This document shows, piece after piece, positions 32,414 through 32,756 of a stretch of 64,000 nt of DNA. A program made the position numbers and the translations under genes. The DNA comes from Escherichia coli. GTDB taxonomy: Bacteria; Pseudomonadota; Gammaproteobacteria; Enterobacterales; Enterobacteriaceae. Each line of letters begins with the position of its first letter. Positions within the stretch are counted from its first letter, which is position 1. The stretch lies in assembly GCF_030013205.1 (NCBI RefSeq), contig NZ_CP122648.1; one strand, 5' to 3'. Below the pieces are notes generated by a model. It was not told where the DNA came from, made no database searches, and saw nothing but the letters and a program-made list of their open reading frames with translations.

Positions 32414-32756
32414 AATTCGAAAAGCCTGCTCAGCGAGCAGGCTTTTTTGCATTTGTAGCTCATGAGGATGAGAACCTCCGGGGGCGGGGAGGTTCGACTC
32501 GAGCGAAGCGAGAGAACGTTGCGCCAGCAACGGCCCGCAGGGCGAGCCACGAAGTGGCGAGTAATCCTCTATCACCGACCAAATTCGAAAAGCCTGCTCA
32601 GCGAGCAGGCTTTTTTGCATCTGCAGCCCATGAGGATGAGAACCTCCGGGGGCAGGGAGGTTCGACTCGAGCGAAGCGAGAGAACGTTGCGCCAGTAACG
32701 GCCCGCAGGGCGAGCCACGAAGTGGCGAGTAATCCTCTGGCACCGACCAAATTCGG
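32395..32756 (+). repeat. Tandem direct repeats (2 full units of about 169 bp plus a partial third) each starting with the last 19 nt of proK and a terminator hairpin
   Basis: aatcctctatcaccgaccaaattcgaaaagcctgctcagcgagcaggcttttttgcat... repeated at 32395, 32564 and (degenerate, ctggcacc) 32733; about 97 percent identity between units. Confidence 0.85.

Follow-up and report, generated by a model that had tools for sequence, protein, structure and literature searches.

Our analyses of a region of the Escherichia coli genome (hereafter the window, i.e. the whole 64,000-nucleotide stretch of DNA analysed, 64 kb) indicate that the segment at positions 32451-32582 very probably forms the body of the proximal member of a tandem pair of elements of the RtT family (Rfam RF00391), also described as tRNA-linked repeats or TLRs, that are located in the 3' trailer of the tRNA gene proK. 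The feature is an already known one: it belongs to a catalogued family (RF00391, Rudd's TLRs) and it is labelled by NCBI's pipeline. In strain K_EC180, which is 100% identical over the stretch, RefSeq lists two "RtT sRNA" features at the same positions. In the present work we describe the organization of these two copies and of their neighbourhood, the occurrence of the family in other species, the conservation of its predicted structure, and the explanations that can be offered for its presence behind proK.

The window covers the eptB-proK-dppA region, in which the upstream open reading frame is eptB and dppA starts at position 33378. The gene proK, which encodes tRNA-Pro(CGG), is located at 32337-32413 on the + strand; it is matched by the Rfam tRNA model with 60.7 bits and it is the sole tRNA called by ARAGORN in the whole 64 kb. 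A promoter-like site (TTGACG, a 17-nt spacer and TAAGAT) was identified at 32296-32324 on the same strand by a scan for sigma-70-like sites, and this proK site was the only one found upstream of the array, none being found before either of the RtT copies. The array itself (32395-32755, + strand) consists of 2.1 units of 168 bp, each of them made up of tail, terminator and RtT body, and it was recovered both by TRF (period 168, 2.1 copies, 96% matches) and as repeat family D1 (97% identity). The order of the parts within a 168-bp unit is a 19-nt copy of the tRNA 3' end, 6 nt, a terminator hairpin, an antisense 5' arm, a short spacer, the T-stem 5' strand followed by TTCGA, a core of about 65 nt, and then the next 19-nt tail. 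The first of the intrinsic-terminator-like hairpins (AAAAGCCTGCTC-AGC-GAGCAGGCTTTT followed by TTGCA) occupies 32420-32451 on the + strand and corresponds to inverted repeat I6; its stem-loop (32420-32446) has 12-nt arms that are 100% complementary and a 3-nt loop, and on our reading of the sequence a T run comes after it. The second hairpin (32588-32619, + strand; inverted repeat I7) is a duplicate of the first, likewise with 12-nt arms of 100% complementarity, and the repeat finder places its stem-loop at 32588-32614. A consensus terminator scanner listed no terminators here, despite the perfect 12-bp hairpins and the T runs, and both hairpins were called from the repeat finder and the sequence rather than from that scanner.

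The two copies were identified by means of the Rfam model RF00391, for which the gathering score is 45. Copy 1 (32448-32581, + strand), which holds the segment of interest and starts 35 nt past the 3' end of proK on the same strand as the gene, scores 101.3 bits (E=5e-21), and copy 2 (32614-32749, + strand) scores 95.8 bits; both of the matches extend over model positions 1-130 of 130. A search pattern built from the core only still retrieves the family, and hence the RF00391 match is not an artefact of the tRNA-identical tail.

Several distinct parts can be recognized in copy 1. The 5' antisense arm GAGGATGAGAACCTCCG (32464-32480, + strand), an inverted copy of the T arm that is apparent in inverted-repeat pair I4, in the minimum free energy (MFE) fold and in covariation helices 1 and 2, is 88% complementary to proK positions 32385-32401 (pair I4). 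This arm is the reverse complement of the T arm of the neighbouring tRNA, with the loop TTCGAAT altered to TTCTCAT, and it constitutes a third tRNA-related piece that had been missed when the DNA was first read. The T-arm-like segment gggaggttcgactc (32487-32500, + strand), which was recognized from the sequence and from repeat family D3, contains GGAGGTTCGA (32488-32497), identical to the T-stem 5' strand of proK together with the T-loop TTCGA. Three occurrences of the string GGAGGTTCGA were counted in the 64 kb, one of them in proK and one in each repeat unit, compared to an expectation of 0.06 from shuffled sequences, and 0 of 100 shuffles reach three occurrences. It is followed, at the position of the T-loop, by the conserved core (32498-32562, + strand; MFE fold and 62-sequence alignment), in which the MFE fold places four small hairpins (viz. 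32498-32514, 32517-32532, 32533-32543 and 32546-32558). Relative to a tRNA, where GGTTCGA directly precedes ATCC, the insertion amounts to a block of 65-66 nt (32498-32562/3). The 3' tail AATCCTCTATCACCGACCA (32563-32581, + strand) comprises the 3' part of the T-loop, the T-stem 3' strand, the acceptor 3' strand and CCA, and is identical at 19/19 positions to proK 32395-32413, these last nucleotides of proK being themselves the first copy of the repeated tail (family D2). At ≤2 mismatches AATCCTCTATCACCGACCA is present three times in the 64 kb window, where shuffled sequences give an expectation of 0.00. The tail of copy 2, AATCCTCTGGCACCGACCA (32731-32749), agrees with proK at 17/19 positions; a change in the 5' arm of this copy (gcCcat) adds pairing to the outer helix opposite the TGG in its own tail, as seen from both the sequence and the Rfam alignment, and the outer stem in the Rfam alignment of copy 2 is free of non-canonical marks.

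A sequence-only reading of this DNA had described a T-arm-like segment and an acceptor 3' strand separated by about 90 nt, and had proposed that they represent a degenerate tRNA 3' half carrying an insertion. The two strings on which that description was based are indeed present (gggaggttcgactc at 32487-32500 and taatcctctatcaccgacca at 32562-32581), the gap between them being 61 nt (75 nt from start to start; 65 nt from GGAGGTTCGA to the 19-nt tail) rather than the 90 nt reported. The observation that the sequence of a tRNA 3' half is split by an inserted block is borne out by the 19/19 tail and by the sharing of GGAGGTTCGA with proK, and its origin from duplicated tRNA sequence, as opposed to random sequence, is supported by string counts far above the shuffle expectation and by the match of the tails to their cognate tRNAs. 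The suggestion of a structured RNA also agrees with our results, in view of the RF00391 family match and the compensatory base-pair changes described below.

The further proposal of a pseudo-tRNA remnant fares differently. In its strict form it holds that the 3' half of proK was duplicated, received a random insertion and has since been decaying with no selection, structure or role. The tail and the common GGAGGTTCGA are what such an origin would leave behind, and the element is dispensable in many strains. However, ARAGORN and the Rfam tRNA model call nothing in the repeats, the latter giving no match in 32414-32760 even at E≤10; the supposed insertion is the most conserved part of a curated and conserved family, with invariant blocks in 62 copies from many genera and behind six tRNA species; a part of the core recurs behind 5S rRNA; the hairpins are kept by compensatory changes; and a dedicated antisense arm accompanies the core everywhere. 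The sequence-only reading had itself named two observations that would speak against it, of which the first, absence of a tRNA-like score, is what we found, and the second, lack of conservation of the T-arm-like segment, is contrary to our results, in which the segment is conserved. We consider decay of a pseudo-tRNA to be very unlikely.

The family to which these copies belong has a long history. According to the summary given in PMC8144298, the first TLRs to be noticed were those at tyrT (Egan and Landy, 1978), and a later catalogue by Rudd (1999) comprised 22 TLR copies at ten E. coli K-12 loci. [quoted passage not shown] TLRs have no known function, and a phenotype once assigned to rtT RNA was withdrawn and later ascribed to a nearby open reading frame (PMC8144298). 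The tyrT member is a detected RNA (Bosl and Kersten, 1991, as cited in PMC8144298), and the last nucleotides of rttR as annotated in K-12 are precisely the CCA of the first tail at this locus. Compared to the TLRs of Rudd, the elements described here differ in nothing essential, apart from both proK copies being intact here, compared to K-12, where a REP element truncates one of the two.

The four RtT copies of the K-12 tyrT-tyrV locus exhibit the same antisense arm, T-arm half, four-hairpin core and tRNA-identical tail as those at proK, and both sets of copies are tandem arrays located directly behind a tRNA. The core is common to the two loci, whereas the arms, the T-arm half and the tail correspond to tRNA-Pro at proK and to tRNA-Tyr at tyrT. 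The spacer of hairpin 2 is 5 nt longer at proK than at tyrT, and an intrinsic terminator separates the tRNA and each of the copies at proK, whereas the tyrT spacers lack such a hairpin. A discrete processed RNA is known from the tyrT member only, the proK copies being known here from their sequence. The two loci also differ in that the Tpr reading frame of the tyrT repeat is not kept in the proK copies, and this difference is relevant to the possibility that the repeats encode an arginine-rich small protein resembling Tpr, either from the open reading frame at 32462-32698 (78 aa) or from the ATG inside GGATGAGAA. The ATG in the GGATGAGAA motif is conserved, K-12 annotates tpr (29 aa) in the tyrT repeat, and an open frame is present at proK. 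Against this, the frame and its stops vary between and within tRNA classes (the stop being at codons 5, 6, 10, 12, 18 to 31, or absent), 9 copies are without the ATG, the lengths of spacers and hairpin loops differ by non-multiples of three, and the frame at proK is different from that of Tpr. A coding role for these repeats is thus scarcely credible.

To determine how widely the family is distributed, we have searched one genome per species from 100,044 species with the core-only pattern, which yielded at least 120 loci; together with the copies in K-12 and in the window, these provide at least 163 core matches. The genera among the matches listed include Escherichia, Salmonella, Citrobacter, Klebsiella, Enterobacter, Serratia, Erwinia, Providencia, Arsenophonus and Gilliamella, as well as Marinobacterium, Amphritea, Neptuniibacter and Oceanobacter from the Oceanospirillales. 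One of the pattern loci, in a Hyphomicrobiales MAG (L120), gave no RtT match at the gathering threshold and is probably a chance occurrence of the pattern. All of the placeable copies among the at least 163 matches are on the same strand as a tRNA gene and downstream of it; for the placeable copies among the matches listed, the adjacent copy lies 34-77 nt from the tRNA and further copies follow behind it in arrays. The linked tRNAs belong to at least six species, viz. Tyr(GTA), Pro(CGG), Pro(TGG), Lys(TTT), Arg(CCG) and Ser(GGA). The copies for which a tRNA was not found are mostly at the edges of loci, and the exceptions that we examined are either inner copies of arrays or lie behind a 3' fragment of a tRNA. 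No orphan copies far from a stable-RNA gene and no copies in both orientations were seen among the at least 163 matches.

The survey also permits the tRNA-like parts of the repeats to be compared with their neighbouring genes. Across the at least six tRNA species, the 18-nt tail shows an identity of 0.88-0.97 to the cognate tRNA versus 0.5-0.8 to other tRNAs; the tails behind Arg(CCG) are degraded, with a value of 0.60 to their cognate. Where the tRNAs of one class differ among themselves by a variant base, this base is mirrored in the RtT tail in 16/18 cases, and the 5' arm carries a compensating change in a tRNA-Tyr locus (L089, C to T) and in a tRNA-Lys locus (L044, C to T). In an alignment of 62 copies, little or no variation was seen in the blocks AGGTTCGA, CGAGCG, AGCGAGA, the CG/GCAACG stem, GCCC/GGG and T.ATCC. 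The tail, the T-arm-like half and the 5' antisense arm vary with the neighbouring tRNA, and the four-hairpin core of about 65 nt is kept. At the level of sequence comparison, these results show that the tRNA-like pieces are copied from, and kept matched to, the upstream stable-RNA gene.

Direct repeats of a tRNA 3' end are also generated when mobile elements integrate into tRNA genes, and the repeats behind proK could on that account be regarded as attL/attR duplications formed at the T loop of proK, with the body as the remnant of an element. The direct repeats do run from the T loop to the CCA end, as left by tRNA-targeting integrases, and attL/attR duplications of tRNA 3' ends likewise begin in the T loop. 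In addition, a Neptuniibacter contig contains a tRNA-Arg with an RtT copy about 5 kb away from a 38-nt tRNA-Arg 3' fragment with two RtT copies. However, the 168-bp unit is without integrase, cargo or conserved open reading frame; an att scar would join the T-arm half directly to the tail, whereas in RtT the conserved 65-nt core intervenes and interrupts the pseudo-T-arm; and the same core is found behind at least six tRNA species and 5S rRNA. The phage and plasmid matches that we inspected proved to be misfiled pieces of chromosome with the tyrT neighbourhood (Salmonella contigs, and "plasmids" with narI or purU), and no genuine RtT element from a mobile-element collection was present among them. 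An integration scar is accordingly a highly improbable source of the repeats.

The same survey bears on the possibility that the repeats are hairpin elements acting at the level of DNA, similar to REP or MITE sequences, that are kept or dispersed as DNA through a transposase acting on hairpins, for instance, or through recombination, and for which transcription is irrelevant. The core contains several short GC-rich hairpins, the number of copies varies and the array has been interrupted by a REP element, all of which are in keeping with such a character, as is a count of mismatched pairs (47 G-U vs 82 A-C, with two columns dominating) that favours neither strand and hence not the tRNA strand. 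However, the placeable copies follow a stable-RNA gene and have its orientation, an RNA has been detected from the tyrT member, its annotated 3' end being at the CCA of the tail, and a CCA in the tail is meaningful only in RNA. We therefore judge a purely DNA-level repeat to be very improbable, and from the co-orientation seen in the survey, the CCA in the tail and the known rtT RNA we infer that the RNA strand of the RtT elements is the tRNA strand.

The MFE fold of copy 1 has a free energy of -51 kcal/mol, which is not much more stable than that of GC-matched shuffles (z = -1.75 for the single-sequence fold). In this fold, positions 32464-32469 pair with 32564-32569 of the tail and positions 32472-32479 pair with 32488-32495 of the T-arm-like half, with the four core hairpins inside the structure and UAUCACCGACCA remaining unpaired. 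It is thus the antisense arm that is predicted to hold each of the T-arm halves, which would be paired with one another in a tRNA.

To examine this structure, the fold of copy 1 was projected onto a MAFFT alignment of the 62 sequences. RNAalifold on this alignment gave a weak consensus of -8.6 kcal/mol, because the variable hairpins are misaligned. Standard pairs are present in 77% of the cells of the projected structure, versus 32-52% when the pairing partners are slid by 1-3 columns, and the covariation score is 0.182 versus 0.084 in shuffled alignments, a value that 0 of 500 shuffles reach. Changes on both sides of a pair were observed in helix 1 (5 pairs), helix 2 (2 pairs) and helix 6 (4/5 pairs); helix 3 has one double-changed pair (CG 28, GC 21, UA 12), and helix 4 is almost fully paired in its correct register (66-86 and so on). 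The covariation of helices 1 and 2, which is due in part to both of their strands being derived from the tRNA, does not constitute independent proof of selection on RNA. Helices 3 and 6 are not tRNA-derived, and their compensation therefore provides independent evidence for conserved hairpins. A published covariation analysis has likewise supported the structure of RtT, including a tandem GA motif (bioRxiv 10.1101/2020.02.04.933952).

When the transcript from proK through the terminator to the first RtT copy is folded as a whole, a free energy of -111 kcal/mol is obtained versus -88 +/- 4.5 in shuffles (z = -5.0), and in this modelled structure the RtT antisense arm pairs with the T arm of proK itself, a long-range interaction that follows from the design of the element. 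The same fold places parts of the core antisense to the anticodon and D arms of proK; this pairing was rejected as a class-specific coincidence, the positions concerned being either invariant across classes or located in variable loops.

A relationship extends beyond the tRNA-linked repeats to those found behind 5S rRNA. RrA, RrB and RrF are TLRs located behind 5S rRNA in rrnA, rrnB and rrnD (Stenum et al., 2021; PMC8144298), and of these RrB is transcribed via read-through of a terminator and processed beside its 5S-identical tail (PMC8144298). The core at proK and the rrnB 5S-linked repeat have in common the block GAACGTTGCG..GCAACGGCCCG.AGGG, with 26/29 nt identical; the score of this block (41) compares to 16 +/- 2.2, with a maximum of 25, in shuffles. 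The Rfam RtT model gave no match to the rrnB repeat at E≤1. Both RrB and proK copy 1 are flanked on either side by a terminator hairpin, follow a stable-RNA gene and end in a copy of its 3' end. Their tails differ, that of RrA, RrB and RrF being the 5S 3' end versus the tRNA 3' end at proK, and their 5' halves are unrelated. The proK copies therefore do not belong with the rrn-linked TLRs: the dual terminators are present, but the tail is that of a tRNA and only the 29-nt block is common to both. RrA, RrB and RrF bind Hfq and CsrA in vitro, and tRNA-linked TLRs scored <0.01 in a CsrA-binding predictor (PMC8144298).

The number of copies behind proK varies within E. coli. Of 5,426 complete E. 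coli genomes, 436 contain a place that matches over at least 80% of the query, and the listed examples of this class have two annotated RtT copies, as does the window. In K-12 there is one intact copy and a second that is cut after GGTTCGACTCGA by a REP element; some strains possess the truncated copy only, and in one strain IS1397 is present in the REP. The element is dispensable, as in many strains, including K-12, the distal copy is truncated by REP or no intact copy is present. The proximal tail is identical to the tRNA, and the distal tail, which has CTGG instead of CTAT, pairs better with its own arm and is similar to the tail found in other genera with a single copy (L007, L026, L041 and L083). 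On sequence grounds this arrangement fits a duplication in which the tRNA end recombined unequally with the old tail, and unequal recombination between tails would account for the changes in copy number among strains.

The features described above suggest how the copies behind proK may work. Their position and orientation are compatible with co-transcription with proK. The copies would be transcribed only upon read-through of the proK terminator (32420-32446 and the T run), as judged by the lack of a promoter-like site before the copies and by analogy with the tyrT rtT RNA and the rrnB RrB. In view of the strong terminator before each copy and the absence of a promoter-like site, the levels of proK RtT transcripts may be very low. 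The 3' ends of the RtT RNAs would, by the same analogy, be set by the tRNA-maturing nucleases, given that the tail is the same as that of the tRNA; the end of K-12 rttR at the tail CCA and the mapping of RrB are consistent with 3' processing of the tRNA type. In the modelled structure, the antisense arm would act as a splint that pairs with both of the T-arm halves and closes a multi-helix junction, with the acceptor/CCA end left free. The 3'ETS-leuZ, a functional RNA which acts as a sponge for sRNAs, likewise comes from the trailer of a tRNA operon (glyW-cysT-leuZ), from which it is released by tRNA processing (PMC8144298). The likeness is one of analogy only: 3'ETS-leuZ has neither a tRNA-identical tail nor repeats, and it shows no kinship to RtT in sequence or structure.

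It is conceivable, though in our estimation unlikely, that the RtT/TLR core is a portable and non-inert module which keeps both sense and antisense copies of the 3' end of its host gene updated. This reading is based on the tracking of tRNA, tail and arm within classes, on the class-specific arms and tails, and on the occurrence of the core block behind 5S rRNA. In a read-through transcript, the antisense arm could, on the modelled fold, base-pair with its own tRNA at the T arm and the 3' end and so serve in cis for quality control or sequestration of mis-terminated precursors. Alternatively, the tRNA-like 3' end of RtT could act as a decoy for enzymes or toxins that bind 3' ends.

The RtT elements represent a family that has been known since 1978 and that is found behind at least six tRNA species and 5S rRNA in the Enterobacterales and some Oceanospirillales. 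That the tail and the antisense arm follow the neighbouring tRNA down to single bases points to the mimicry of the tRNA 3' end and to the self-splinting helix as the targets for mutation.

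The predicted fold of the whole transcript comprising proK, the tRNA-Pro(CGG) gene, and the first of the two tandem copies of the tRNA-linked repeat RtT located 3' of it (positions 32337-32581 in the window) is far more stable than the folds of shuffled sequences (z = -5.0), and in this predicted structure the T arm of the tRNA itself is paired with the antisense arm of RtT and the 5' acceptor strand of the tRNA with the RtT tail. Two perfect 12-bp hairpins, each followed by a run of T residues, are present behind proK at positions 32420-32446 and 32588-32614. No terminator in the region 32150-33400 of the window was called by the consensus terminator scanner; its silence on these hairpins looks like a blind spot of the tool, in which the A/T-extended stem swallows the T run.

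The second RtT copy is intact and free of a REP element in the window, whereas in strain K-12 (locus L001, NC_000913.3 3707400-3709200) it is broken off after GGTTCGACTCGA and the place of the remainder is taken by a REP element (Rfam naRNA4, 69 bits); locus positions 876-955 of L001 correspond here to window positions of about 32668-32800. In strain 2017C-4173W12, IS1397 is located inside this REP.

Neptuniibacter pectenicola contains two RtT loci about 5 kb apart on contig NZ_LUTS01000005.1 (L109 and L110; 175786-176960 and 180895-182417). At one of them a single RtT comes after a complete tRNA-Arg(CCG); at the other a 38-nt 3' fragment of tRNA-Arg precedes the same spacer and two RtT copies. 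The pair looks as if the tRNA end had been carried, with its RtT, by an integrated element or by a segmental duplication. Two entries catalogued as "plasmids" from Klebsiella and Salmonella, 55 kb and 34 kb in size (L126, NZ_CP079141.1, and L127, NZ_CP018654.1), contain the chromosomal tyrT neighbourhood (viz. narI, narJ, purU, and rssA) together with RtT copies, and they are probably misassigned pieces of chromosome.

Elsewhere in the window, the rdlD antitoxin RNA (Rfam RF01813) is matched three times in tandem on the minus strand (82-90 bits), at positions 40725-40790, 41208-41273, and 41691-41756 with a spacing of 483 bp, and these matches imply three putative LDR-type toxin-antitoxin repeats in tandem. 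Since K-12 presumably carries a single ldrD/rdlD copy at the corresponding locus, this array may represent a strain-specific expansion. Other matches are a sok antitoxin RNA (119.8 bits; 20279-20430, plus strand) adjoining a cspA thermoregulator leader (501 bits; 20713-21140, minus strand), and a small match to ES036/CssrF (1487-1529) that is barely over threshold at 38.9 bits.

The RtT core also has a 26/29-nt block in common with RrB, a 5S-linked repeat in the rrnB trailer of K-12 (L128, NC_000913.3 4171500-4172300, locus positions about 360-390); the Rfam RtT model gave no detection on RrB. Because of this common block, the sequence comparison suggests that one module is shared by tRNA-linked and 5S-linked repeats.
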